A stretch of DNA of 64,000 nucleotides, taken from the NCBI GenBank assembly GCA_903834845.1, contig CAILKW010000142.1, positions 18-64,017 on the forward strand, read 5' to 3'. Under the pieces are notes generated by a model, which saw nothing but the letters and a program-made list of their open reading frames with translations, did no database searches and had not been told where the DNA came from. A program made the position numbers and the translations under genes. This stretch comes from an uncultured Bacteroidia bacterium. Its GTDB lineage: Bacteria; Bacteroidota; Bacteroidia; Bacteroidales; Prolixibacteraceae. Shown one piece after another: positions 3,050 through 61,974 of this stretch (the stretch's first letter is position 1; each line of letters begins with the position of its first letter).

Positions 3050-3195
3050 ATCAAAACGATAGGTAGCACAACCCAATCTGAATTACCTTGTGATAGGTAT
3101 CGGTGTTATTGGACTATCCATTGCCAGATAACTAAACAATAGATTTCCTGAGGCTAAAATTTCATTATTGAAAAAGTAACATGATGTGGCATAAT
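3050..3195 (+). pseudogene. Second copy of the decayed lhgO-like 5' fragment
   Basis: Aligns by eye to about 640-790, including the same premature-stop context (..GAAAAAGTAACATGATGTGGC vs ..GGAAAAGTAACATGATGTGGC). It is a direct repeat flanking the 1085-2949 TA patch. Confidence 0.6.
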
Positions 3196-3580
3196 AGAAA
3201 ATGGAAAAAGTAATCACTCAAAAAAAAAGTAACCCTGCATTCAATGCGATAATTCTTTTAGCTAACTTGGATGAATTAAGAAAACAAGCACGGCAAAAGA
3301 TCGCGTAATATTTGACAGTTGTGTTTTGATAAAAGCATTCAGGAGAGATGCTGCTGCAAAAAGCAATCTGAAAGTAATAATCCATCGTACAGCATATTCA
3401 GTAAATTGATTCAGTACCATATTCCCTGATTGCAGCAACCTCAATAATAACTAATTACCCTTTAATGACTTATAACAAAAAAAAATTTGAATTTATTGAA
3501 AGAATGATTTTTTACAAATAAGTGAGATTTTACAATAAAAATAACTCCATGTATCTCTGTGATAGTATAATCTGTGTTAA

Positions 3581-46754: not shown

Positions 46755-47465
46755 ATGCCTTCTATTTCCCAAATCTGTGTTGAAGGCAATTCTGGTTCTA
46801 CAGGCAGGATTGCTGAAGAGATAGGGATTTTAGCAATACACAAGGGATGGGAAAGCTATATTGCATACGGTAGGTTTACACGACCAAGTAAATCCAAAAC
46901 CATTCGGATTGGATCCGACCGGGAGGTGTTTTATCATGGTTTGGAAACCCGCTTATTTGACAGGCATTGTCTGGGATCAAAAGCAGCTAAAATAAGACTT
47001 GTCAAACAGATTGAATCAATTAAACCTGATATTATCTACCTACACCATCTGCACGGATATTATATTAATATTGAAACATTATTTGCCTATCTCCCAAAAG
47101 CAACTATTCCTGCCGTCTGGACTTTTCACGATTGCTGGTCAATTACGGGTCATTGTGCCCATTTTGATTATTTCGGATGTGACAAATGGAAAACTGAATG
47201 TCATCACTGCCCTCAAACAAAAGAGTATCCTGCAAGCTTATGGATCGACCGGTCAACAAAGAATTATCGCCTGAAGAAAAAACTTTTTACTTCCGTTCAA
47301 AATATGGTTATCGTTACTCCATCCGATTGGTTAGCACACATTGTAAAGGAATCTTTTATGCAAAGTATTCCTGTTCGAACAATTCACAACGGTATCGATA
47401 CATCCGTTTTTAAACCACAAATTAACCATCGGGAAACAAGAGAAAAATACAGAATTATAGGCTAA
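46755..47465 (+). pseudogene. 5' truncated duplicate of the GT4 gene at 48976..50202
   Basis: 236 aa nearly colinear with residues 1-235 of the intact copy (ICVEGNSGSTGRIAEEIG ... FKPQINHRETREKY), then diverging and stopping. The catalytic C-terminal half is missing. Confidence 0.8.
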
Positions 47466-48767: not shown

Positions 48768-48975
48768 GAACCTTTTAACAGCACAGATCACAAATATTAA
48801 ACTAACATGTTTACCGTAATAGGTTATAAGATCTAATTTACAATCATGCCAAATACCTATAATTTCTGTAATAGCAACGACTCAATGTTTAAATATGTAG
48901 AAGAGTTTAGCAGCTTTGAAAATGTAGTTGCAATAGAAATTGTAAAGCAAGAATATGCGATTCAGCATTGTTTTT

Positions 48976-50202
48976 ATGTCTAACATTTTCCAAATCTGTG
49001 TCGAAGGGAATACCGGTTCAACCGGTAGGATTGCAGAAGAAATTGGAATTTCAGCAATGCAGCAAGGTTGGGAAAGCTATATTGCATTCGGTAGGTTTCC
49101 ACGTCCAAGTAAGTCCAAAACCATACGGATTGGATCCGATTTGGCGGTATTCTGTCATGGTTTGGAAACCCGCTTTTTTGACCGGCATTGTCTGGGATCA
49201 AAAACAGCTACAATAAGACTTGTCAAACAGATTGAATCAATTAAACCCGATATCATCCACCTGCACCATTTGCATGGATACTACATTAATATCGAAATAT
49301 TATTTAATTACTTAGCAAAAGCAGCTATTTCTGTCGTCTGGACTTTTCACGATTGTTGGTCAATTACAGGTCATTGTGCCCATTTTGATTATATCGGATG
49401 TGACAAATGGAAAACCGAATGTAATCATTGTCCCCAAACAAAAGAGTATCCTGCAAGCTTATGGTTCGACCGGTCAACAAAGAATTATCGCCTGAAGAAA
49501 AAACTTTTTACTTCCGTTCAAAATATGGTGATCGTTACACCATCCCATTGGTTAGCAAATATTGTCAAGGAATCTTTTATGCAAAGTATTCCGGTTCAGA
49601 TAATTCACAACGGTATCGATACTTCAGTTTTTAAACCACAAATTAACCATCGAGAAACAAGAGAAAAATACCACATTGGTGAAAGGTTTGTGATTTTGGG
49701 GGTTGCTAATCCATGGACACAGAAGAAAGGTTTTGATGATTTTATTGCTTTAAGTAAGCTATTATCTAAAGATGATGTTATAGTTTTGGTAGGATTGGAT
49801 AAGTCTCAAATAAAACAATTACCAAAGAACATCATCGGTCTAACCAAAACAGAAAACAGACAAGAATTGGTGGATTTGTATTCGGCTGCCGACCTGTTTG
49901 TTAATCCAACCTGGGAAGATAATTTTCCAACAACCAATATCGAGTCATTGGCTTGTGGAACACCTGTGGTAACCTATCGCACCGGTGGAAGTATTGAGGC
50001 GGTTTCACCGGAAACAGGATTTATTGTGGATAAAGGAGATATTAACAGTCTTGTTGAAATCGTCAGAAGTGTTAAAGTAACTGGTAAGCTTGCCTACACA
50101 GCATCATGCCGAAAACGGGCAGTTGATTTTTTTTCGAAAAATGACCGTTTTGCGGAATACATGGTTTTGTATGAAAACCTGCTCAGACAAAAAAATGGTT
50201 AG
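48976..50202 (+). CDS. Family 4 glycosyltransferase (intact copy)
   Basis: N-terminus ICVEGNTGSTGRIAEEIG. C-terminal GT-B motif NPTWEDNFPTTNIESLACGTPVVTYRTGGSIE (EX7E-like). Start at ATG 48976. Confidence 0.8.
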   Translation: MSNIFQICVEGNTGSTGRIAEEIGISAMQQGWESYIAFGRFPRPSKSKTIRIGSDLAVFCHGLETRFFDRHCLGSKTATIRLVKQIESIKPDIIHLHHLHGYYINIEILFNYLAKAAISVVWTFHDCWSITGHCAHFDYIGCDKWKTECNHCPQTKEYPASLWFDRSTKNYRLKKKLFTSVQNMVIVTPSHWLANIVKESFMQSIPVQIIHNGIDTSVFKPQINHRETREKYHIGERFVILGVANPWTQKKGFDDFIALSKLLSKDDVIVLVGLDKSQIKQLPKNIIGLTKTENRQELVDLYSAADLFVNPTWEDNFPTTNIESLACGTPVVTYRTGGSIEAVSPETGFIVDKGDINSLVEIVRSVKVTGKLAYTASCRKRAVDFFSKNDRFAEYMVLYENLLRQKNG

Positions 50203-50242
50203 ATATTAAAAAAAAATGTTGATTAAAAATTGAAGGAAAAAC

Positions 50243-51385
50243 ATGAAAAACAGTAATTTCATTGAAATTATTCAACAAGGTGAAAATTCAGCCATCGAAT
50301 TTAAGTCGGCAGATGTTAAAACTGATAGTTTGGCGAAAGAGATAATTGCTTTTGCCAATATGAATGGTGGAATCATCCTGATTGGAATTGAAGATGATAG
50401 GACGATTAGCGGTGTTTCAAAAGAAAAAAACTGGGAGGAGTGGACGATGAATATTGCACGCAACAATATAAATCCACCATTAAATATTGGTTTCGAATAT
50501 ATTGAATTGAAGGAGAAAATAATTGCAATCATTACGGTTGATAAAGGAAAAAATAAGCCATACCAAACCATTGATGGCAAATATTATATCAGGATTGGTT
50601 CTACAAATCGAATAGCTTCCATTGCCGAATTAATGCGCCTGTTTCAGGAAAGTGGTGCGTTTAATTATGATTTGTTCAAGGTAGAAAAATCGAAAATTTC
50701 AGATTTAAACTCTAATAAATTAGATACTTATTTCAGTAAATATGGTGTGGACTTCAGCTTGGATAAGGATAAAGAAAAATTGCTGGTGAATACAGATATT
50801 ATGACAGAAGAGGGCAACCTGACAGTAGGTGGGCTTCTTATTTTTGGAATAAATCCACAACGATATTTATACAATTCATACATTGTATTTGCTCATTTTA
50901 ATGGAAATATAATTTCTGATGAATTAATTGATAAGCAGAATATTGAAGGCACAATTGATATGCAGGTTGATTTAGCGGTATCAGTGATAAAAAATAACCT
51001 GCTTACACCTTCAAAAATTATTGGATTAAAAAGAGAACATAGTAAGCATTTATATGAAGATAAGGTATTTCGTGAAATTGTGTTAAATGCTGTTGTACAC
51101 CGTAATTATGCCATTTTGGGCAGCTCAATACGTATATTTTTATTTAGTGATAGATTAGAAGTAATTAGTCCTGGAAAATTGCCAAACACCGTAACCCTCG
51201 AAAAAATAAAAGCGGGTGTTTCGTATTCGCGAAATTCAGTAATTCTAAAATATTTAGAAAACCTAAGATATATTGATAAGCTTGGTAGGGGCATACCAAT
51301 GATCATAAATGAAACAAAAAAAGCCAATAAGAATGTAATTTTTGAAGAAATTGGCGAAGAATTTAAAGTTACTCTGGAGTTGTGA
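50243..51385 (+). CDS. AlbA_2 (Schlafen-type) + ATPase-like domain protein
   Basis: GENSAIEFKSAD ... AFANMNGGIILIGIEDD. 380 aa. Mosaic paralogue of 56997..58145. Confidence 0.7.
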   Translation: MKNSNFIEIIQQGENSAIEFKSADVKTDSLAKEIIAFANMNGGIILIGIEDDRTISGVSKEKNWEEWTMNIARNNINPPLNIGFEYIELKEKIIAIITVDKGKNKPYQTIDGKYYIRIGSTNRIASIAELMRLFQESGAFNYDLFKVEKSKISDLNSNKLDTYFSKYGVDFSLDKDKEKLLVNTDIMTEEGNLTVGGLLIFGINPQRYLYNSYIVFAHFNGNIISDELIDKQNIEGTIDMQVDLAVSVIKNNLLTPSKIIGLKREHSKHLYEDKVFREIVLNAVVHRNYAILGSSIRIFLFSDRLEVISPGKLPNTVTLEKIKAGVSYSRNSVILKYLENLRYIDKLGRGIPMIINETKKANKNVIFEEIGEEFKVTLEL

Positions 51386-51425: not shown

Positions 51426-52667
51426 ATGCCTATACTATTTCAAATCAACGTAGTACGAAATACCCGATCAACAGGGACGATAGCTGAGGAGATTGGCCGA
51501 CTTGCTATTGAACATGGTTGGGAAAGCTATATAGCACATGGCCGTTATACAGTGAAATGTGATTCCCAAATCATTAAAATAGGAACTGAGTTATCTGTTA
51601 TTTTGCATGGCCTTCAAACCCGGCTTTTTGACCGGCACGGTTTAGGTTCCCGTAGGGCAACTATAAAATTAATCGAACAAATTAAAACCATTAAGCCAGA
51701 TGTTATCCATTTACATAACATACATGGCTATTATATTAATATCGAAGTTTTATTTAACTTTCTTGCAATTTCCTCAATCCCTATTATTTGGACACTACAT
51801 GATTGTTGGTTGATGACTGGCCATTGTGCCCATTTCGAATATGTAAAATGTGATAAATGGAAAACTGAATGTAATAATTGTCCCCAATTGGGCGAATATC
51901 CCAAAAGTTTATTTGTGGACAGGTCAACTAAAAATTTCTATCTGAAAAAGACCTTGTTTACATCGGTATCAAATATGGTTCTTGTACCTGTATCAAATTG
52001 GCTTAAAAATCTGGCAAAAGAATCTTTTATGGGTAGTTTCCCTATAAAAACCATTTATAATGGATTAGATATTTCTATATTTAAACCACAAAATAACAAC
52101 GAAAACACAAGAACGAAATATGGGATTGGCAATCGTCTGATGATTTTAGGGGTAGCAATGCCTTGGACAAAGAAAAAAGGGCTTTATGATTTTGCCCAGT
52201 TAAGTAAACGGATAAAGTTGGATGAAGTGATTGTTTTAGTGGGATTAAGCGATAGGCAAATAAAAGAATTACCTAAAGAGATTATTGGTTTGCCTAAAAC
52301 AAATAATCATCAGGAATTAACAGATCTTTATTCGGCTTCCGATCTGTTCGTGAATCCAACCTGGGAAGATAATTTCCCGACCACCAATATTGAGGCTTTG
52401 GCGTGTGGGACACCTATAGTTACCTATCGGACTGGTGGAAGTATTGAAGCTGTTTCGCCTGAAACAGGTTTTATCGTCGAAAAAAGAGATATTGATGGAC
52501 TGTTAAAAGTGATCGCAACCATCAAGAAAAACGGCAAATCGTTTTATTCGGATGCCTGCCGTAACCGCGCAATAAAATACTATAATAAAAATGAACGTTT
52601 CGCCGAATATATCGAATTATATGAAAGGCGTTTAGAAAAAAAGATTGTAAAAGGGCCAGCAGATGTA
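51426..52667 (+). CDS. Family 4 glycosyltransferase module (third paralogue) lacking a stop codon
   Basis: Colinear with 48976..50202 to ..ERFAEYIELYERRLEKK, then reads through a CT-rich spacer into the next gene. It is part of the composite ORF 51426..53903. Confidence 0.75.
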
Positions 52668-52748
52668 GATTTGTCTCCCCCTCCCACTCTCCCCCCCTCT
52701 CTCCCTCTCTCCCACTCCCCTTCTCAACCCCTAAAAATCAAAACATTT

Positions 52749-53903
52749 ATGACAACACACTACAAACCAAAGGCAACTTACAGAATCTGCACCAACTGTA
52801 TAATGGATACCTCTGATCCCAACATCACCTTTGATGAACGTGGGTGGTGCGACTATTGCAGAAATTATTACAAAAACATTGTACCCTACTGGCATCCCAA
52901 TGAACAAGGGATGAAGGAATTGCAACCCTTGATTGATAAAATTAAAAGGGATGGTAAGGGCAAACCGCATGATTGTTTGATCGGCCTGAGCGGCGGTGTG
53001 GACAGCTCGTATGTTGTCTGGTTGGCAAAGGAAAAATTCGGGCTGCGACCCATGCTGTTCCATGTCGATGCCGGATGGAATTCACAGGAGGCAGTTAACA
53101 ACATTGAGAAATTAGTTGATGGGCTTGGGCTCGACTTATATACGGAGGTCGTTAACTGGGAGGAGATGAAAGACTTGCAATTGGCATTTTTTAAAGCGCA
53201 GGTTCCCCATATCGATACCCCACAGGATCATGCTTTCTTCGCAGGGCTCTATAACTTTGCGGCCGAACACAAACAAAAATATATTTTTACAGGTGCTAAC
53301 TATTCAACTGAATGTGTACGCGAACCACTCGAATGGCATTACCATGCCTCAGACCTGGTCCAATTACAAGATATCCACCGGAAATTTGGGACACGGCCTC
53401 TCAAATCATTTCCATTAGCCGATATCTTTAAATTCAAAATATATTATCGGTTTATCAAAGGAGTACAAGTCGTTAAGCCATTAAATCATGTCCATTACAT
53501 CAAAGAGGAGGCAATGAATATGTTGGTGGAGCGTTTTGGTTGGCAAAAATATGCGCACAAACATTACGAATCGCGCTTTACCCGCTTTTATGAAGGGTAT
53601 TGGTTGCCCACAAAATTTGGTTATCAGAAACACCGTGCCCACTATTCGAGCCTGATCCTCACGGGTCAAATGACACGCGATGAAGCCCTTGACCTGATTT
53701 CCAAGCCGGCATACGACCCCGAAACCATTGCACAAGATTTTGAGTACATTGCCAAAAAACTGGAGATCTCCGTCCAGGAATTGCAGGAATTGATGGATGG
53801 TGAGAACAAGACCTATCGTGATTATAAATCCAGAATGCCACTCATTAATCTGGGAACAAAAATATTAACTCTGTTTGGAATACAAAAATCTATCATACGA
53901 TAA
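52749..53903 (+). CDS. wbuX: N-acetyl sugar amidotransferase (WbuX/PseA type, PP-loop)
   Basis: From ATG 52749. Zn-ribbon-like CTNCIMDTS..CDYCRNY and PP-loop GLSGGVDSS. About 384 aa, the normal size for the family. Confidence 0.8.
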   Translation: MTTHYKPKATYRICTNCIMDTSDPNITFDERGWCDYCRNYYKNIVPYWHPNEQGMKELQPLIDKIKRDGKGKPHDCLIGLSGGVDSSYVVWLAKEKFGLRPMLFHVDAGWNSQEAVNNIEKLVDGLGLDLYTEVVNWEEMKDLQLAFFKAQVPHIDTPQDHAFFAGLYNFAAEHKQKYIFTGANYSTECVREPLEWHYHASDLVQLQDIHRKFGTRPLKSFPLADIFKFKIYYRFIKGVQVVKPLNHVHYIKEEAMNMLVERFGWQKYAHKHYESRFTRFYEGYWLPTKFGYQKHRAHYSSLILTGQMTRDEALDLISKPAYDPETIAQDFEYIAKKLEISVQELQELMDGENKTYRDYKSRMPLINLGTKILTLFGIQKSIIR

Positions 53904-53937
53904 TGTCTTTAACCCACTCATGCTTTTACATTTTTTT

Positions 53938-53945
53938 TATTTTTG
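53938..53945 (+). promoter_or_regulatory. Bacteroidota -7 promoter-like motif TAnnTTTG
   Basis: TATTTTTG lies about 26 nt upstream of ATG 53971. Weak evidence in AT-rich DNA. Confidence 0.25.
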
Positions 53946-53970
53946 CATTTTAAATCAAAAACAAAATGTC

Positions 53971-54168
53971 ATGAACACAAATGAGCACGAACAATATTTG
54001 AGCGAATTTAAATCTTATTTACTCGACGTGGTATCAACCCACAAGAAAGCTCAAGATTTTTTGATACGCTCTGGCATCAACACAAAATCAGGTAAATTGT
54101 CTAAACAATATTCACCTTCCCCAACTAAAAAAAGTCAAAGTACATGTATTCCAAAAGAACCGGCTTAA
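53971..54168 (+). CDS. Small (65 aa) protein overlapping the start of the DUF3990-like gene, antitoxin-like position
   Basis: MNTNEHEQYLSEFKSYLLDVVSTHKKAQDFLIRSGI.. is helical with a basic tail. Its 3' end overlaps ORF 54144 by 25 nt. Confidence 0.4.
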   Translation: MNTNEHEQYLSEFKSYLLDVVSTHKKAQDFLIRSGINTKSGKLSKQYSPSPTKKSQSTCIPKEPA

Positions 54169-54764
54169 TTTTGGGTTTTCATGGTTGCGACCAAACAGTA
54201 AGGGATGCCATTGTTTCGATGGAAGGAGGTAAGCTTCTTCCAAGCAGTAATAATTACGACTGGTTGGGTCATGGTGTTTATTTTTGGGAGAACAATTATA
54301 AAAGAGCACTCGAATTTGCAAAATTTCTAATGCAAAACACACCACATAATTCTAAACAGCGGATTAAAATACCATCGGTTGTTGGAGCAGTTATTGATTT
54401 GGGATATTGTTTGGATTTACTCGATTCTGAATATTTGAACCTCCTTAAAGCAGGCTATTATTCATTGAAAGAGACACATGTAAAATATGATTTAGAAATC
54501 CCAAAAAACTTGTCTTTGTTTAAAGATGGTGATTTATTAAAAAGACATCTCGATTGTGCTGTTGTAGAAACGATCCATCAGTTTAATATAGACACCAATA
54601 AACACGAATTCGATTCTGTTCGTGGAGTTTTTTTTGAAGGAGACGATTTGTATGAAAATGCAGGGTTTAAAGAAAAGAATCATATTCAAATTGCAAAAAA
54701 TCCGAATTGTATTAAGGGTTATTTTATACCTCGTAAATTAGATACAAAATATCCAAAGCCATAA
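54144..54764 (+). CDS. Distant DUF3990-like protein
   Basis: Shares LILGFHGC, DWLGHGVYFWENNYKRALEFA, FDSVRGVF and NHIQIA with LYHGG, DFGKGFYTTRNRDQSEKWA, FDIVIGAV and DQISF of 56132..56620. Confidence 0.5.
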   Translation: MYSKRTGLILGFHGCDQTVRDAIVSMEGGKLLPSSNNYDWLGHGVYFWENNYKRALEFAKFLMQNTPHNSKQRIKIPSVVGAVIDLGYCLDLLDSEYLNLLKAGYYSLKETHVKYDLEIPKNLSLFKDGDLLKRHLDCAVVETIHQFNIDTNKHEFDSVRGVFFEGDDLYENAGFKEKNHIQIAKNPNCIKGYFIPRKLDTKYPKP

Positions 54765-54794
54765 TTGTCCTTATCCATCTTAAATATTCAAATT

Positions 54795-55409
54795 ATGATC
54801 GCAATAATAGATTATGGGTTAGGTAATATAAAAGCTTTTGCCAATGTGCATAAACAGCAAAACATTCCGGCCACCATTGCACAGTTTCCGTATCAATTGA
54901 GGGAAGCAGATAAAATTATCCTGCCTGGAGTTGGTTCTTTTGATTATGCCATGCAGCGGCTCAATAGTTCCGGAATGCGCGAAACGCTTGATGATTTGGT
55001 ATTAAATAACCAAATACCGATTTTAGGGATCTGCGTGGGCATGCAGATGTTGGCCAAAACGAGTGAAGAAGGAGAGCTTCCGGGATTGGGATGGATCGAT
55101 GGGGTTGTCAAACGATTCGATCCGGCAACATTTAAAGATCCCGCATGTATCCCACACATGGGCTGGAACGATGTTAACCCAACGGGAAATTCGCTACTTA
55201 TGCAAAATCTTGAACAAAATGCAAGGTTTTATTTTCTTCATTCCTACTACTTTAGTTGCAACAACCCCGAAGATACAATCGCTGTCACCGATTACGGTAT
55301 TCAGTTTTCGAGTGCTGTTTGCCATCAAAACATTTACGGTGTTCAGTTTCATCCTGAGAAAAGCCATCAGTGGGGAATGCAGTTGCTCAGGAACTTTGCC
55401 TTACTTTAA
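54795..55409 (+). CDS. hisH: Glutamine amidotransferase, HisH paralogue of glycan loci (WbuY-like)
   Basis: MIAIIDYGLGNIKAF, GICVGMQML (nucleophile Cys) and GVQFHPEKS. Start at ATG 54795. Confidence 0.85.
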   Translation: MIAIIDYGLGNIKAFANVHKQQNIPATIAQFPYQLREADKIILPGVGSFDYAMQRLNSSGMRETLDDLVLNNQIPILGICVGMQMLAKTSEEGELPGLGWIDGVVKRFDPATFKDPACIPHMGWNDVNPTGNSLLMQNLEQNARFYFLHSYYFSCNNPEDTIAVTDYGIQFSSAVCHQNIYGVQFHPEKSHQWGMQLLRNFALL

Positions 55410-55675
55410 TGCAAAAGTGCGGTAGCACTGATAACCCCTTGAACACTGATAACATTTGGGAACACGGATGACAAGGATATTACGGGTTTAATAATTCTTA
55501 TCTGTGTAAATCTGTTCAACCCCCCGAGGGTTCCCGAAAATCGGGACAGGCAGGGGCAGGCTGTGTAGTCTCCCGATGCTCGGGACAAGTTGTGTTCCAA
55601 AAATGTAATCTATGTTCTAATCAGTCATCACTGTTCTAAAAAAATCCGATATTTTCGTGTTGAAATCCAAAAGCT

Positions 55676-55915
55676 ATGGACAATAATGTTTTCAAATCTA
55701 TACTTCCATTTAAGATACAGGATTTAATATCGATTATTAAGGATCGGAAGCATTTGAATTTTACGGAAGCGCTTCATTATCTTTATGAATCTAAACTTTA
55801 CAATGCTTTTTCAATAGAGGATACTAAACTTTGGCACCTAAGTTCAGAAAAACTTTTTGATATGCTTGAGAACGAGAAACTAACAAAAGAAATCATTTTC
55901 CCTGACTACGTATAA
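55676..55915 (+). CDS. Small helical protein, first of a DUF3791-like pair
   Basis: 79 aa, immediately upstream (3-nt gaps) of a DUF3791-like and a DUF3990 gene. Weak resemblance only. Confidence 0.4.
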   Translation: MDNNVFKSILPFKIQDLISIIKDRKHLNFTEALHYLYESKLYNAFSIEDTKLWHLSSEKLFDMLENEKLTKEIIFPDYV

Positions 55916-55918
55916 AAG

Positions 55919-56128
55919 ATGATCAAACTCAATAAAATAGAGCAGTTTCAGCTATTTTGTCTCGAATATTATAAGAATCAGATTAGTATTTCGGGCAAAA
56001 TGGCTTTGGATGTTTTTGAATCAAAAGGTGTCTTTAATTTTCTTGAAATGGGCTATGAAATATTGCATACACAAAGTATTAAGTATGTTGTTGACGAAAT
56101 TATCCTTTTCATTAAAAACAGATCGTAA
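55919..56128 (+). CDS. DUF3791-like protein
   Basis: QLFCLEYYKNQISISGKMALDVFESKGVFNFLEMGYEILHTQSIKYVVDEI matches my recollection of DUF3791 (..y.iLHt.s..y.v.di). Confidence 0.55.
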   Translation: MIKLNKIEQFQLFCLEYYKNQISISGKMALDVFESKGVFNFLEMGYEILHTQSIKYVVDEIILFIKNRS

Positions 56129-56131
56129 TTA

Positions 56132-56620
56132 ATGAACCTATACCATGGTGGCTTAAATGTGGTTGAATTTCCGGTTATACAGGATTCTCAAAGATTGTTG
56201 GACTTCGGTAAAGGGTTCTATACCACAAGAAATCGGGATCAGTCTGAAAAATGGGCTATAATCAAGCAAAACAGGGAAGACAATAAGCCTAAACCTATCG
56301 TTACCGTGTATAAAATAGACGAGGATATACTTAAAAACGAGACTTTTAATGTGAAGATGTTTGCAAAAGCAGATGAACAATGGTTGGATTTTATCTTTTC
56401 TAACAGAATGGGATTAAATGTTCACACTTTTGATATTGTCATTGGTGCTGTTGCCAATGATACACTATATTCAACACTTGTTTTATATGAATCCGGAGTG
56501 CTTTCAAAAATTGAAACCATCAGAAGACTTAAAACCCATAAACTCTTTGACCAAATCTCGTTTCATAATCAAACAGTTCTAAAAAAACTTCAATTCATTG
56601 AAAGCTATGTGGTTAAATAA
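56132..56620 (+). CDS. DUF3990 protein
   Basis: MNLYHGGLN..DFGKGFYTTRNRDQSEKWA... at 162 aa. Canonical DUF3990 N-terminus and the usual DUF3791 neighbourhood. Confidence 0.65.
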   Translation: MNLYHGGLNVVEFPVIQDSQRLLDFGKGFYTTRNRDQSEKWAIIKQNREDNKPKPIVTVYKIDEDILKNETFNVKMFAKADEQWLDFIFSNRMGLNVHTFDIVIGAVANDTLYSTLVLYESGVLSKIETIRRLKTHKLFDQISFHNQTVLKKLQFIESYVVK

Positions 56621-56996
56621 ATTTTCAGAAACACGGATGGAACTGATGTTACAGCCTGCCTCGTTTTTTCGGGAGATGATACAGATGGACGCAGTTTTAA
56701 TTTAGGAATACTTTATTAATCCGTGGAATCCTGTTTAATTTGTGTAATCTTTACTCCGAAAAAAAACATGAACTCTGTATTCCGAAAAAAAATCCTTACA
56801 TTTATCCACTACAACAGCAAATGAAGAAGTTGAATAACTGGTTGCAGCAATAAATAGTTTAAATAATTTCAAATACTTGATATAAATGAAACGAGCCATG
56901 AACAGCAATTCTCGTAAAGCAGGATGATTTTCATGGCGAGTTCCCCCGAAGGATCGGGGCTGGCTATGTGGCCATTAAAAAATAAATTATAAACAC

Positions 56997-58145
56997 ATGA
57001 ACCACAGTAATTTAATTGAAATTATTCATCAAGGTGAAAATTCCGCCATCGAATTTAAGTCAGCTGATGTTAAAACTGATAGTTTGGCAAAAGAGATAAT
57101 TGCTTTTGCCAATATGAATGGTGGAATCATCCTGATAGGAATTGAAGATGATAGGACGATCAGCGGAGTTTCAAAAGAAAAAAACTGGGAAGAGTGGACC
57201 ATGAATATTGCCCGCAACAATATAAAACCTCCATTAAATATTGGTTTCGAGTATATTGAATTGAAGGAGAAAATAATCGCAAGTATTACGGTTGAGAAAG
57301 GGAAAAATAAGCCATATCAAACCATTGATAGCAAGTACTATATCAGAATCGGCTCTACAAATCGGATAGCCTCCATTGCCGAATTAATGCGCCTGTTTCA
57401 GGAAAGTGGAGTTTTTCATTATGATTTGTGCAAGGTAGAAAACACGTCAATTAAATCGCTAAATTATTATAAGATAGCTGAATATTTTAAACATTTTGAA
57501 ATTGATTTTGAAAAGGAAATCGATGAAAATAGGGTCAATTTACTTACAAATACCGATATACTGACTGTGAACGGAGAAGTTACACTGGCTGGTTTGTTGG
57601 TTTTTGGAATCAATCCAGCCCGGTATCTTTTTCAATCGGGAATCACTTTTGTTCATTACAATGGAAATGATGTTACTGGCGATATAATTGATAGCAGGCA
57701 CATTGAAGGCGATATGGATTATGTCATTTCTACTGCATTTACATCAATAAAAAACAATATTTTAACACCTTCTGTAATTATCGGATTAAAAAGAGTTGAT
57801 ACCAAAGAAATATATCCTGATAAAGTATTCAGAGAGTTGATAACAAATTGTTGTGCTCATCGAAATTATGCAATTACCGGTTCAAAAATAAGGATTTTAT
57901 TATTTCACAATAGAATTGAATTTATCAGTCCCGGCAGGTTGCCAAATACAATAACTATCGAGAAATTATCCGCAGGCGTTTCATTTAGACGAAATCAGCT
58001 TTTGACAAAATTTATGGTTGTTCTTCGGCTAATGGACACTTTTGGAAGAGGATTGCCCAATGTAATTTCCGAAGCCAAAAGATTGAAAAAAAGTATCCTA
58101 TTTGAGGAAATTGGCGAAGAATTTAAAGTTACTTTAGATTTGTGA
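56997..58145 (+). CDS. AlbA_2 (Schlafen-type) + ATPase-like domain protein
   Basis: 382 aa. The first 147 aa differ from 50243..51385 at 11 positions (hand count), the centre is diverged, and the last 13 aa differ at one position. Confidence 0.7.
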   Translation: MNHSNLIEIIHQGENSAIEFKSADVKTDSLAKEIIAFANMNGGIILIGIEDDRTISGVSKEKNWEEWTMNIARNNIKPPLNIGFEYIELKEKIIASITVEKGKNKPYQTIDSKYYIRIGSTNRIASIAELMRLFQESGVFHYDLCKVENTSIKSLNYYKIAEYFKHFEIDFEKEIDENRVNLLTNTDILTVNGEVTLAGLLVFGINPARYLFQSGITFVHYNGNDVTGDIIDSRHIEGDMDYVISTAFTSIKNNILTPSVIIGLKRVDTKEIYPDKVFRELITNCCAHRNYAITGSKIRILLFHNRIEFISPGRLPNTITIEKLSAGVSFRRNQLLTKFMVVLRLMDTFGRGLPNVISEAKRLKKSILFEEIGEEFKVTLDL

Positions 58146-58147
58146 TT

Positions 58148-58338
58148 TATATCAATGAGGAGGCGATGAATGTATTGGTGGAGGTTCTGTTGCTAAAATC
58201 CTGATGATAAAACAGCAATAACCGAATATGTTATCCGTTTTTCGAGTGTTGTCAGCCATCAAGATATTTGCGGTGTACAATTCAATCCTGAGAAAAGTCA
58301 TTAGTGGGGCATGCCGTTGCGAAGGAGATCTGCCTTGA
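58148..58338 (+). pseudogene. Composite remnant: internal wbuX piece fused to a hisH 3' end copy
   Basis: 58148-58200 aligns to 53494-53550 (..IKEEAMNMLVERFGWQK). 58200-58338 aligns to 55265-55405 (..[32 protein letters not shown]), with stops. Confidence 0.7.
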
Positions 58339-58648
58339 AAGGAGAGTGGAAGAAATTACGAGGTTTATAAATTTAGAGATTATGAAGTTTGGCCTCTCTT
58401 CTCGTAAGTTTTTGATTCTATTCGTTTTTTTATATAAAGGGAGAAATGAAGAGGTTAGAAGGATAGATATTAGAAATGGTTGATATTAAAAACAATAGCC
58501 TCCTTTTTACCAACCTTCTAATCTCCTTACCTCTTAATTTCTTACCCTATTATTTTCAATATATTACCCTCTTATCCATTTAACCTCTAAACTCCTCATC
58601 TTCTAAACTCCTCACCTTCGAATCTTTTCACCTTCTAAACTCCTGCAA

Positions 58649-59434
58649 ATGCTACGACCCAGAATTATCCCCTGTTTACTTGTCCATGACAAAGGCCTGG
58701 TTAAAACCATTCGGTTTAGTGATCCCAAATATGTTGGTGATCCTATCAATGCTGTAAGGATTTTCAATGAAAAAGAGGTAGATGAGTTAATAGTGTTAGA
58801 TATTGATGCCACCCGTGAAAAAAGAGAACCTGACTATAGGATGATTGCTCATCTGGCAGAGGAATGTCGGATGCCTCTTTGCTACGGTGGCGGTGTAACA
58901 ACCAGTGATCAGGTGAGAAAAATAATTGGCCTTGGAGTTGAAAAAGTGGCAATCAGTGCAGCTGCAATCAATCATCCACATCTTATTGCTGAGGCAGCCG
59001 GTAAGGTAGGAAATCAAAGTATTGTTGCTGTACTTGATGTTAAAAAACTACTTTTCTCGGGGAAATATGAAGTAAAAATAAACAATGGAACCAAATCAAC
59101 AGGTAAGAGTCCTTTTGAATTTGCCAAAGAATTGGAACAACTTGGTGCTGGCGAAATCGTAATTAATTCCATTGATAACGATGGTATTATGAAGGGTTAC
59201 GATCATCAGTTGGTCGAAAAAATTTGTAAAGCTATTCATATTCCATTAACGGTTCTTGGCGGAGCTGGTTCACTTCAAGACATAGGTCAGCTATTTCAAA
59301 GACATGGTACTTTGGGTGCTGCTGCGGGAAGCCTATTTGTTTTCAAAGGAATTTATCGAGCTGTTTTGATTAATTATCCCAACCGTGATGAAAAAGATAC
59401 TCTTATCAGACAAAACATTCAATATCTGTCCTAG
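58649..59434 (+). CDS. hisF: HisF paralogue of glycan loci (WbuZ / AglZ-HisF2-like cyclase subunit)
   Basis: RIIPCLLVHDKGLVKTIRF..YVGDPINAVRIFNEKEVDELIVLDI. 261 aa. Confidence 0.85.
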   Translation: MLRPRIIPCLLVHDKGLVKTIRFSDPKYVGDPINAVRIFNEKEVDELIVLDIDATREKREPDYRMIAHLAEECRMPLCYGGGVTTSDQVRKIIGLGVEKVAISAAAINHPHLIAEAAGKVGNQSIVAVLDVKKLLFSGKYEVKINNGTKSTGKSPFEFAKELEQLGAGEIVINSIDNDGIMKGYDHQLVEKICKAIHIPLTVLGGAGSLQDIGQLFQRHGTLGAAAGSLFVFKGIYRAVLINYPNRDEKDTLIRQNIQYLS

Positions 59435-59747: not shown

Positions 59748-60810
59748 GTGGATATTAAAACAATTATAACCCAATCAGAAGGCCGTCGCCTTGAGTTTAA
59801 GGAGACAATGCCTAAACGTTCGGATTTGGCAAAGACAGTTATTGCCTTTGCCAACGATGCCGGTGGAGATATAATCATTGGGATAGGGGACAAACCTCGT
59901 GCTGTTATCGGTCTTCCGGAAGTAGAACTTGTGTCTATGGAGGAACAAATCAGCGACATTATATACAGTCGTTGTTATCCTGGAATATTGCCTGAAATAA
60001 CATTTCTGAGTGTTGCCGACAAACACCTGATTAAGGTTACTGTTTATAGAGGAAGTATGCCGCCATATTACATTAAAGAGAAAGGTAAGTTACAAGGAAC
60101 ATATATTCGTGTTGGTTCTTCAAACAGATTAGCCGACGAGTCAATAATTACAGAATTAGAGCGTAGAAAACGAAATGTATCGTTTGATAGCGAACTTGTT
60201 TCGGATAAACTGGCAGAAGCATTAAAAACAGATCCCTTTGCTTCCATTTTCAATGAAAAAACCGGTAAAGAACTCAGTAAACAAACGTTGAAAAAATTGG
60301 AATTGACGAAAGAGAATCACGGAGTAATTTACCCAACCAATGCGTTGGTTTTGTTTTCAGATGATGAATTACGCAACTCACTATTTCACTATGCAAAAGT
60401 GGAATGTGCACGTTTTAAAGGAATATCCGAATATTGAATTCCGTTGGAAGGAAGTGGGTTTGTCATTTCAGGTACAGTTCGTAAAGTTGAATTATATTGT
60501 CGAGCAACAACATCAGCAAGAGTTAGGGCAAGAGTTAGGGCAAGAGTTGAGCCAAGAGCAAAAAGAGAAAACTCTTTTCAGTTTAATATTCAAACATTTA
60601 CAAGTTCGACCTCAGTCGCGTAATGAACTAAAAGAGGCATTTGGCCTTAAAAAAGTATCTGGTTACCTAAATAGAACCATAATAAAATTGCAATTATATA
60701 ATTTAATAGAACAAACAATCCCGAAAAATCTCAATCACCCCAGCCAAATGTTGCGTATTACAGAGCGTGGAGTAAATCTCATACAATTAGTTGAACAAAG
60801 ACATAAATAA
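59748..60810 (+). pseudogene. AlbA_2-family gene with its central region lost and a frame break
   Basis: N-terminal part (ORF 59748..60437) has EGRRLEFKE ... AFANDAGGDIIIGIGDK. The C-terminal wHTH-like part is in another frame (60340..60810). Total length is far below the 380-463 aa of the paralogues. Confidence 0.6.
60517..60558 (+). repeat. 12-nt tandem repeat (CAAGAGTTAGGG x about 3.5) inside the pseudogene
   Basis: CAAGAGTTAGGGCAAGAGTTAGGGCAAGAGTTGAGCCAAGAG encodes QELGQELGQELSQE. Confidence 0.85.
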
Positions 60811-61026: not shown

Positions 61027-61059
61027 TTCTGATTATTTCAGAACAATTACATATCTTTG
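61027..61059 (+). promoter_or_regulatory. Possible HigBA promoter/operator: inverted repeat TTCTGA-N5-TCAGAA plus TAnnTTTG
   Basis: TTCTGATTATTTCAGAA (61027-61043) is followed by TATCTTTG (61052-61059), 10 nt before ATG 61069. Short motifs, so weak evidence. Confidence 0.3.
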
Positions 61060-61068
61060 TACACGCTT

Positions 61069-61407
61069 ATGAGATTAATTGGTAAGCAAAAATTAGAAAA
61101 ACTTAAAAGAAAAAACAAAGGAAACGTTTCTTTGACAAAAGATATTAACAAGCTGATTGTTGATATTGAAATGAATGAGTGGAAAAGTAAGGCTGATTTA
61201 AAAGAAACAAGATCAGATGCCAATTGTGTGCATAGCGATGGCTTCTACTTCTTTAATCTGGAAGTAAGCCGAACTATGATACTTGTAGTATTTGAAGAAG
61301 GAGAAGCCTCGGTAGTATGGGTTGGTAATCATCAGGAATATGAAATTACCTTCAAAAATAATAAAGACACCATCAAAAAATGGTTAAAGGATAACAATTG
61401 GATATAA
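61069..61407 (+). CDS. higB: HigB-family (RelE-fold) toxin
   Basis: MRLIGKQKLEKLKRKN...YFFNLEVSRTMILVVFEEGEASVVWVGNHQEYE fits the HigB_toxin pattern (..f.i.gn.yRli..i......v.i..igtH.eYd). Confidence 0.7.
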   Translation: MRLIGKQKLEKLKRKNKGNVSLTKDINKLIVDIEMNEWKSKADLKETRSDANCVHSDGFYFFNLEVSRTMILVVFEEGEASVVWVGNHQEYEITFKNNKDTIKKWLKDNNWI

Positions 61408-61413
61408 TAGCTT

Positions 61414-61974
61414 ATGCAAACAGATTTCGACATAAATAAGGTTATTAAGTCAGGCAAAATTCAAAATGAATTGGATTTTGAAAAAGCCTTGATTGCCGAC
61501 AGAAAGTTAAGGGTACTTTCAAAAGAAAATCCCGAATATAGGTCAGTAAGGAGTAAATTACGCGATTTAATTGAGGCATGGGAAAGCAAGCATTGGATGG
61601 CAGATTCGGAAATATCGGATGAAAAAATCCGAGAAAGTGATCTGGCGGGTTCTATCGCGGAAAACGAACGTCAATTTATTGAAAAAAGAAAGAATCTGAT
61701 CAGAAATCAATTAAAAAGCCTGAACCTTACGCAGCAAGCCTTGGGTGGCCTATTAGGGCATAAGAATAAATCATATATTTCAGAATTAATGAATGGAGTT
61801 GCACCTTTTTCATTGCGGGATTTAATCGTTATTAACCTTCTAATGAAAATTGATTTGTCCGATTTGATACCGGCATTCTTATCTCATAACGAACGGTTAA
61901 GGATAAAAGCATCTCTGGAGAAACTGGAAAATACCAAATTAAAACTACGCAAGGCCGATTTTACAATAGTTTGA
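61414..61974 (+). CDS. higA: HTH (XRE-type) antitoxin, HigA-like
   Basis: C-terminal LKSLNLTQQALGGLLGHKNKSYISELMNGVAPFSLRDL is an XRE helix-turn-helix. Located 6 nt after higB. Confidence 0.65.
   Translation: MQTDFDINKVIKSGKIQNELDFEKALIADRKLRVLSKENPEYRSVRSKLRDLIEAWESKHWMADSEISDEKIRESDLAGSIAENERQFIEKRKNLIRNQLKSLNLTQQALGGLLGHKNKSYISELMNGVAPFSLRDLIVINLLMKIDLSDLIPAFLSHNERLRIKASLEKLENTKLKLRKADFTIV

Follow-up and report, generated by a model that had tools for sequence, protein, structure and literature searches.

Two putative toxin modules related to ADP-ribosyltransferases bracket hisH in an acetamidino-sugar operon of an uncultured Prolixibacteraceae bacterium

The DNA studied here is a 64,000-nucleotide (nt) stretch of contig CAILKW010000142.1 from an uncultured Bacteroidia bacterium of the Prolixibacteraceae, hereafter called the window, and the interval of interest (positions 53971-56620, with all genes on the plus strand) holds two groups of small genes on either side of hisH. 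We consider it likely that these groups are two independent, horizontally mobile toxin modules, which flank hisH and are co-oriented with an acetamidino-sugar operon (wbuX-hisH-hisF). Module 1 consists of a basic protein of 65 amino acids (aa) and a 206-aa protein related to CmdT, a toxin of the ADP-ribosyltransferase (ART) type, and module 2 consists of two small acidic proteins of 79 and 69 aa and a 162-aa protein of the DUF3990 family. This reading is built on what is established, namely the assignment of the proteins to families, the fold of DUF3990, the retention of the partner genes in differing contexts and the finding of module 1 on plasmids. The open reading frames (ORFs) with their sizes and coordinates, the 25-nt overlap within module 1 and the 3-nt gaps within module 2, all of which had been listed in an earlier note on this DNA, are confirmed, and the ORFs are real genes and not chance ones, because 7806 database clusters match the 206-aa protein at E<=1e-3 and 520 match the 162-aa protein.

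In the mechanism which we propose, the 65-aa protein is translationally coupled to the 206-aa enzyme through the overlap of their genes, and this enzyme, a predicted ART of the diphtheria-toxin type (H-Y-E), would most likely work in the manner of CmdT, attaching ADP-ribose from nicotinamide adenine dinucleotide (NAD+) to nucleic acid, probably RNA, and bringing growth to a stop. Its small partner would most likely hold the enzyme inactive or control its expression, and the cassette would serve either to stabilise its carrier, a plasmid or an island, or to abort phage infection. The effector of module 2 would have an ART fold with a site of the H-Y-D/N type and would act as a transferase or as an NAD+-cleaving enzyme (NADase), and the two acidic paralogues of the DUF3791 family would probably form a heteromeric partner which neutralises DUF3990 or has a sensing role. 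Toxicity, neutralisation by the small proteins, use of NAD+, the target and a role in phage defence are the parts of this scheme that we infer.

The 206-aa protein is, as sequence comparison indicates, a member of a large unannotated family related to CmdT. An exhaustive search collected 2307 clusters of this family at 50% identity, and the 120 clusters closest to the window protein, which come from different phyla at 63-99% identity, include none with a Pfam domain or an informative name. The earlier note had called the protein DUF3990-like, which is not borne out: it has no match in Pfam, DUF3990 included, or in NCBIfam even at E<=10, and is a relative of CmdT instead. The PADLOC model PD-T4-9_A matches it weakly (E 0.0025) and matches 68 of 76 diverse members of the family, the best at 1e-9. 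PD-T4-9 is the CmdTAC system, the first gene of which is CmdT (PMC9519451), and CmdT has been characterised biochemically as a diphtheria-toxin-type ART which ADP-ribosylates mRNA and whose defence and toxicity are abolished by substitution of Y41 (PMC11618068). As reference we took CmdT from a toxin-antitoxin-SecB locus in an Escherichia coli P2-like prophage, located via the published Y41A mutagenesis primer. When the family profile is aligned with this protein by hhalign, the probability is 95.4% with E 1.7e-8 over 54 columns, and the window protein alone matches it by BLASTP at E 6e-5; DUF3990, which served as a negative control, has no detectable similarity to CmdT. The alignment pairs GFH13GC of the window protein with GFHNC of CmdT, and GVY46FW with GYY41FW, so that Y46 stands opposite the catalytic Y41.

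The conserved residues of the family agree with a catalytic site of this type. Among 152 members H13 is kept in 99%, Y46 in 100% and E165 in 98%, and the motif residues conserved in the family are H13, G14, G42, G44, Y46, A55 and Q182. The predicted triad is H13, Y46 and E165, in which the third residue is assigned from its conservation. Moreover, a few members show weak Pfam matches to PARP (9 of 76) and Exotox-A_cataly (2 of 76). In a phage collection there was one partial match, in Synechococcus phage S-B28 (MK016662.1; locus L174, 1974-2327), where a 117-aa "hypothetical protein" aligns, at 30% identity and E 4e-6, with the N-terminal 83 residues of the 206-aa protein and no further, and the PHROG family phrog_14664, which is without annotated function, matches the 206-aa protein over its full length at 6e-23.

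As to its organisation, module 1 is by its conserved gene order an autonomous two-gene cassette like that of toxin-antitoxin (TA) systems. Ninety loci were compared (79 from species genomes and 11 from metagenomic contigs, including a few redundant ones), and 85 of them have a homologue of the small partner directly upstream on the same strand, as detected by a hidden Markov model at E<=1e-3; about 25 loci have a gap of -25 nt between partner and effector, and in most of the others it lies between -4 and +8 nt. The contexts range over type I restriction-modification, flagellar and housekeeping genes in many phyla. No other neighbour family appears in more than 6 of 84 loci, SecB is not among the conserved neighbours, and no SecB-like gene is found at the module 1 position in the window. 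A genome scan detected module 1 in at least 592 species genomes from many phyla, the taxa including Bacteroidota, Clostridia, Paenibacillus, Hyphomicrobiales, Thiomargarita, Spirochaetia, Phycisphaerae, Lentisphaeria, Nitrospirales and Ignavibacteriota. The pair is also present on 68 plasmids, such as an 8.5-kb Acinetobacter plasmid and, within replication and partition regions, plasmids of Pseudomonas syringae, with every copy annotated as "hypothetical protein". The partner family is made of basic proteins of about 48-65 aa (median isoelectric point, pI, 9.7) which are built of a helix and then a conserved AGI-x-T-xx-G-x-L-x-K-x-Y segment. The 25-nt overlap (54144-54168 in the window) recurs in a subclade of about 25 of the loci L010-L091, in which the partner ends in ...NLCIPxxQx; the window partner ends in STCIPKEPA. 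Since this tail is conserved in the subclade, the overlap encodes a conserved peptide and is no accident of this genome. The earlier description of the gene coupling as TA-like thus stands for both modules, whose small partners stay with them in widely differing genomic surroundings.

Module 1 shares with CmdTAC the layout of a small operon that includes a very short partner gene, and its 206-aa family is a homologue of CmdT in the N-terminal half of the ART domain (GFHxC ... WLxxGxYFW ... A..W). However, the antitoxin gene lies downstream in CmdTAC, where CmdA is encoded by the second ORF and has a C-terminal chaperone-addiction tail, whereas the partner of module 1 lies upstream, and it is hisH that follows the 206-aa gene. 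Unlike CmdTAC (PMC9519451), module 1 has neither a SecB-like chaperone nor a third conserved gene, and the 206-aa family, with its clusters counted above, is far larger and more conserved. A search of the literature found no description of the 206-aa family or of its two-gene form, and module 1 is, as far as its proteins can be compared, a new architectural variant around a CmdT-type toxin with a very large family. We further propose, tentatively and at somewhat less than even probability, that the module 1 family as a whole (at least 2300 clusters at 50% identity, at least 590 species, more than 10 phyla, and plasmids) is a chaperone-independent two-gene system of the CmdT type with a new basic partner of about 50 aa, which would ADP-ribosylate nucleic acid, probably mRNA, as a means of plasmid addiction or abortive infection, beyond the Enterobacterial CmdTAC.

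Module 2 is, by the matches of its proteins, a catalogued candidate system of the composition DUF3791-DUF3791-DUF3990, namely PDC-M13 of PADLOC. With Pfam DUF3990 the 162-aa protein gives a full-length match of 153.3 bits (E 5.3e-45), above the gathering threshold of 32.2 bits, and the 69-aa protein matches DUF3791 with 63.9 bits (1.4e-17), which passes that of 25 bits and agrees with the earlier identification of this protein as DUF3791-like; the 79-aa protein matches DUF3791 with 17.1 bits (0.0056), under the gathering cut-off. The PDC-M13 models PDLC04438, PDLC04439 and PDLC04445 match the 162-aa, 79-aa and 69-aa proteins at 1.6e-50, 3.2e-20 and 5.1e-16, respectively, and the assignment to PDC-M13 here means adjacent genes which match the protein models. 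In all three gene models and both Pfam families module 2 fits PDC-M13 and differs from it in nothing substantive. The families of the 79-aa protein (a) and the 69-aa protein (b) are paralogues, as hhalign aligns them with 94% probability at E 9.5e-8, and both are acidic with a median pI of 4.9 (a) and 5.4 (b). The small partners of the two modules are unrelated, that of module 1 being a basic protein outside any known family and those of module 2 this acidic DUF3791 pair. It is still true, as had been remarked, that the function of DUF3990/DUF3791 modules is not established, but the system is already in the catalogue, and the one paper that we found on PDC-M13 reports its abundance in rumen genomes (PMC13356809).

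DUF3990 trios occur in many unrelated contigs, and the three-gene make-up is the rule among relatives of module 2. In 80 metagenomic DUF3990 loci (L092-L171), with T for the effector, the order is T-a-b in 24, b-T-a in 14, a-b-T as in the window in 12, and a fused a-b before T in 4, while 12 loci, some at contig ends, have no detectable partner. Rotation of a single circular order yields all three main orders, so that the window copy is one of three cyclic permutations, and locus L137 (3038-4927) has two tandem copies of the trio; re-cutting of tandem arrays may have produced these operons.

The fold of DUF3990 was examined with an AlphaFold2 model of the 162-aa protein, which has a predicted local distance difference test score (pLDDT) of 91 and a predicted template modelling score of 0.85. 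By Foldseek its top matches in the Protein Data Bank (PDB) are 9r35 and 6gw6, the RES toxins of Xre-RES systems, with probability 0.99-1.0 and template modelling (TM) score 0.45-0.52, and further matches are ParT (6d0h), the pertussis-like PltA, diphtheria toxin and an ART toxin domain of an Rhs protein. Pfam lists DUF3990 in its ART clan (PMC7955679), which agrees with the earlier note, where DUF3990 was said to be grouped near that superfamily. As judged by profile and model together, the 162-aa protein is a true DUF3990 with an ART fold. The conserved residues of DUF3990 are H5, G6, D24, G26, G28, Y30, Q37, W84, R92, G105, A108, D110 and Q141, with H5 at 98% and Y30, D110 and Q141 each at 100%. 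In addition, DUF3990 is found as the C-terminal toxin domain of Rhs proteins of the type VI secretion system (PMC4524185, PMC10763514), which fits an antibacterial activity. In Serratia Rhs5 and Enterobacter RhsA the same Pfam domain forms the toxic tip for delivery, and an immunity gene lies downstream of it (PMC4524185, PMC10763514), whereas the DUF3990 of the window is a free-standing protein of 162 aa with two DUF3791 partners and is not fused to an Rhs scaffold.

Several observations weigh against the reading of the two modules proposed above. The alignment with CmdT is confined to about 54 N-terminal columns and does not extend into the C-terminal halves. For the 206-aa protein AlphaFold2 gives a model of mediocre quality (pLDDT 72), and Foldseek finds no match to it at E<=0.001 in PDB or BFVD, so the ART fold of this protein is argued from sequence; weak as the model is, PARP1 and a Tpt1-like protein are among the matches with E>1 in the same searches. 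Sequence-profile searches of PDB with the 206-aa and DUF3990 families also gave nothing significant, with exotoxin A at E 0.8-2.3. Of the suggestion of an ADP-ribosyltransferase fold for both large proteins, the structural part therefore stands for the 162-aa protein, whose model matches the ART toxins RES and ParT, and the 206-aa protein is connected by its relation to the sequence of CmdT. For DUF3990 itself the Foldseek matches are modest (E 2-6e-3, TM about 0.5, sequence identity 5-6%), and PDC-M13 is a candidate phage-defence system in PADLOC for which no validation was found. With respect to the partner of module 1, no recognisable antitoxin fold was detected in Pfam (32 members) or by a profile search of PDB, which gave scattered weak matches, and it has no similarity to CmdA. 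At the same time, CmdT alone is insoluble and non-toxic and requires CmdA in order to fold (PMC11618068), which means that the small partner of module 1 need not be a simple inhibitor.

This last point leads to an alternative which we regard as unlikely, that the partner of module 1 is a folding helper, an activator or a nucleic-acid-binding regulator and that the ART is a conditional defence effector or a non-toxic modifier, the pair not being a classical TA system. The precedent of CmdA, needed for the folding and accumulation of CmdT (PMC11618068), speaks for it, as do the strongly basic character of the partner, with the median pI given above, its weak and scattered resemblance to winged-helix segments, and the unusual conservation of the effector, at 65-75% identity across phyla. 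However, the strictly upstream position of the partner, the translational coupling, the occurrence on plasmids and the lack of a third conserved gene are the usual signature of type II TA systems, which argues for the partner as an antitoxin.

A further alternative concerns the chemistry, for one or both effectors could, in the manner of RES toxins, act as NAD+ glycohydrolases and so deplete the cell of NAD+, and not be transferases acting on RNA, DNA or protein. RES of Pseudomonas putida is an NAD+-degrading toxin, and RES toxins of Xre-RES systems are the top structural matches of DUF3990. Yet ParT and the pertussis-like and diphtheria toxins, which are transferases, were matched too, and the 206-aa family is tied specifically to CmdT, an RNA transferase, so that this alternative also appears improbable to us. 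Like RES-Xre and ParT-ParS, to which the DUF3990 model is structurally closest, module 2 would combine a compact ART-fold toxin with an adjacent neutralising partner, but the R-E-S signature of RES is replaced in DUF3990 by the conserved H5, Y30, D110 and Q141, the partners are two acidic DUF3791 proteins and not an Xre or helix-turn-helix (HTH) antitoxin, and the sequence identity is 5-6%. The transferase reading may also be compared with DarTG, in which an ART-fold toxin (DUF4433) ADP-ribosylates DNA and a macrodomain antitoxin removes the modification. DarTG is similarly a two-gene toxin-antitoxin and defence module with an ART-fold toxin working on nucleic acid, but its toxin is of a different ART family, and neither module of the window encodes a macrodomain or a NADAR hydrolase.

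The two large proteins could also be diverged copies of one DUF3990-like family, in which case the locus would hold two versions of one module. The earlier note had taken them for distant homologues on the basis of four shared motifs, and these motifs are indeed present in both proteins, at positions conserved in the families (in DUF3990 H5, G6, G26, G28, Y30, G105 and Q141), although the second motif requires a one-residue indel. A permissive local alignment by hhalign (152 versus 119 sequences) is collinear over 137 columns at E 0.012 and matches all four motifs as well as a fifth, R-x-LDCAV versus WLDFV; the order of secondary structures is parallel in the two models, and 1 of 76 members of the 206-aa family matches Pfam DUF3990 (0.032) and 2 of 76 match the PADLOC DUF3990 model (about 0.002). 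However, the probability of the permissive alignment is 3.6%, and over all hhalign runs the probabilities are 0.2-3.6%, with E 0.3 for shallow profiles and 0.11 for a diverse 206-aa profile; the global mode gives nothing between the 206-aa and DUF3990 profiles, and BLASTP between the two proteins gives E 0.44. Furthermore, it is the 206-aa family, not DUF3990, that matches CmdT (95%), and the partner sets of the two modules differ in number and charge and show no relation in sequence. We take direct homology of the two large proteins as suggested but not established, and give little credence to two versions of one module; both proteins belong to the ART superfamily on evidence of their own but to different families, being superfamily cousins at best. 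In the permissive alignment E165 of the 206-aa protein stands opposite N109/D110 of the 162-aa protein, just after the FD.V.G motif, which would make the site H-Y-E in the former and H-Y-D/N in DUF3990, and the third catalytic residue would likely lie there and not in the Q-I motif listed in the earlier note.

The features of the locus are collected in Table 1. As had been described, hisH, a gene of the operon, is bracketed by the two modules inside the amidotransferase trio, and by family models the flanking genes are indeed a WbuX fusion, HisH and HisF2. In the 825-aa fusion protein WbuX of NCBIfam (4.7e-96) covers residues 453-791, and the glycosyltransferase domains make up the N-terminal half. 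The start of hisH in related contigs is the ATG, which gives a protein of 204 aa, and a spacer of 266 nt separates hisH from module 2. According to the TIGRFAM family descriptions, wbuX, hisH and hisF are usually adjacent. The G+C content is higher in these three genes (0.40-0.43; positions 52500-53500, 55000-55500 and 58500-59000) than in the modules and the AlbA_2 genes (0.31-0.35). With regard to expression, TATTTTTG (53938..53945, plus strand) fits the Bacteroidetes-type -7 promoter motif TAnnTTTG and lies 33 nt before the start codon of module 1, which is weak evidence as this motif matches 0.84 times per kb in the window and a chance match at 53938 is not unlikely. Scans for sigma-70 promoters and terminators did no better than on shuffled sequence, and Rfam revealed no RNA element between the genes.

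Table 1. Features in and around the interval 53971-56620 of the window
Feature	Coordinates	Strand	Assignment or remark
GT4 glycosyltransferase-WbuX fusion (N-acetyl sugar amidotransferase), 825 aa	51426..53903	+	TIGR03573, Pfam Glycos_transf_1/Glyco_transf_4
Module 1 small partner, 65 aa	53971..54168	+	putative antitoxin/regulator
Module 1 effector, 206 aa	54144..54764	+	CmdT-related, ADP-ribosyltransferase-like
hisH (WbuY-type glutamine amidotransferase subunit)	54795 (ATG) or 54765 (TTG)..55409	+	TIGR01855 2.5e-67
GC-rich palindromes CCCGAAAATCGGG and CCCGATGCTCGGG	55533-55545, 55572-55584	+	in the spacer before module 2
Module 2 small protein a, 79 aa	55676..55915	+	divergent acidic DUF3791 paralogue, PADLOC PDLC04439
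Module 2 small protein b, 69 aa	55919..56128	+	DUF3791, Pfam PF12668
Module 2 effector, 162 aa	56132..56620	+	DUF3990 (ART clan), Pfam PF13151
Third palindrome, CCCGA-N-TCGGG	56945..56958	+	downstream of module 2
Schlafen AlbA_2 genes, three in the operon	50243-51385, 56997-58145, 59748-60437 (with 60340-60810)
Decayed 3' remnant of a second, divergent hisH	58170..58337	+	between an AlbA_2 gene and hisF
hisF2/WbuZ, cyclase-like amidotransferase subunit	58649..59434	+	NF038364 AglZ/HisF2 1.6e-114; TIGR03572 WbuZ 1.2e-86

One could also argue that the inserted genes serve the polysaccharide pathway as accessory enzymes, perhaps ART-like ones that modify sugars and were recruited beside hisH for metabolism, from their co-orientation and tight packing in the wbuX-hisH-hisF operon and from the recurrence of the arrangement in several metagenome samples, but the recurrences come from near-identical strains (97.8-99.9% DNA identity), and we reject this very improbable reading because the modules occur mostly away from polysaccharide genes and module 1 has no conserved neighbour (84 loci) and is found on plasmids.

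The operon shows traces of rearrangement around the modules. The hisH remnant upstream of hisF corresponds to residues 148-203 of HisH, to which it is 57% identical, and contains two in-frame stops (tblastn E 1e-19 in the 601-nt segment 58100-58700 and 1e-16 in the whole window) and is also the DNA repeat D3; its place upstream of hisF means that the operon was rearranged and that the junction of hisH and hisF was evidently broken by insertion or replacement. Among the three AlbA_2 genes, the first two carry HATPase_c_4 and share a 300-nt 5' repeat of 93% identity (50237-50536 versus 56991-57290), and the third is apparently truncated or frameshifted. In one metagenomic contig, as compared by its gene calls, module 2 appears to be linked with the other of these two paralogues, for a 380-aa AlbA_2 gene directly follows it where the window has one of 382 aa, and this suggests either recombination between the repeats or an ambiguity of assembly. 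A strain variant (locus L176) matches window positions 53924-56979 at 99.9%; past this point, which lies just before the AlbA_2 gene, the homology ends and an unrelated minus-strand gene follows (3071-3347). We looked for a strain with an empty site and found none, as all close relatives found carry both modules. Palindromes of the form CCCGA-N(4-5)-TCGGG occur 3 times in the 64-kb window against 0.10 expected, and all of them flank module 2; they match no Rfam family and may be hairpin terminators or the remnant of a small repeat element.

Some further features of the neighbourhood are recorded here. Downstream there is another TA-like pair, formed by an ORF of the HigB_toxin family (61057-61407; Pfam on the matching contig L175) and then a 186-aa HTH_3 protein (61414-61974). 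The GT4 glycosyltransferase gene is duplicated (48955-50202 versus 51426-52700), with a 237-nt stretch of 79% identity, and its second copy is joined to WbuX by a linker rich in proline (…SPPPTLPPSLPLSHSPSQP…), which has the look of an intergenic stretch that came to be translated. The N-terminal domain alone is present in a third GT4 ORF (46755-47465, 236 aa).

The locus is an example of selfish modules that would ride inside a long co-directional polysaccharide operon, and it offers H13, Y46 and E165 together with a defined partner gene as handles on the 206-aa family, and likewise handles on the very abundant DUF3791/DUF3990 candidate. To our knowledge, CmdT is one of few enzymes known to ADP-ribosylate mRNA, and it has so far been studied within a three-gene, chaperone-controlled system of E. 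coli. If the 206-aa family shares the chemistry of CmdT, ADP-ribosylation of RNA would be a much commoner bacterial weapon than has been documented. A minimal cassette of two genes would carry it in Bacteroidota, Firmicutes, Proteobacteria, Planctomycetes and others as well as on plasmids, and it would be governed by a new kind of small controller protein.

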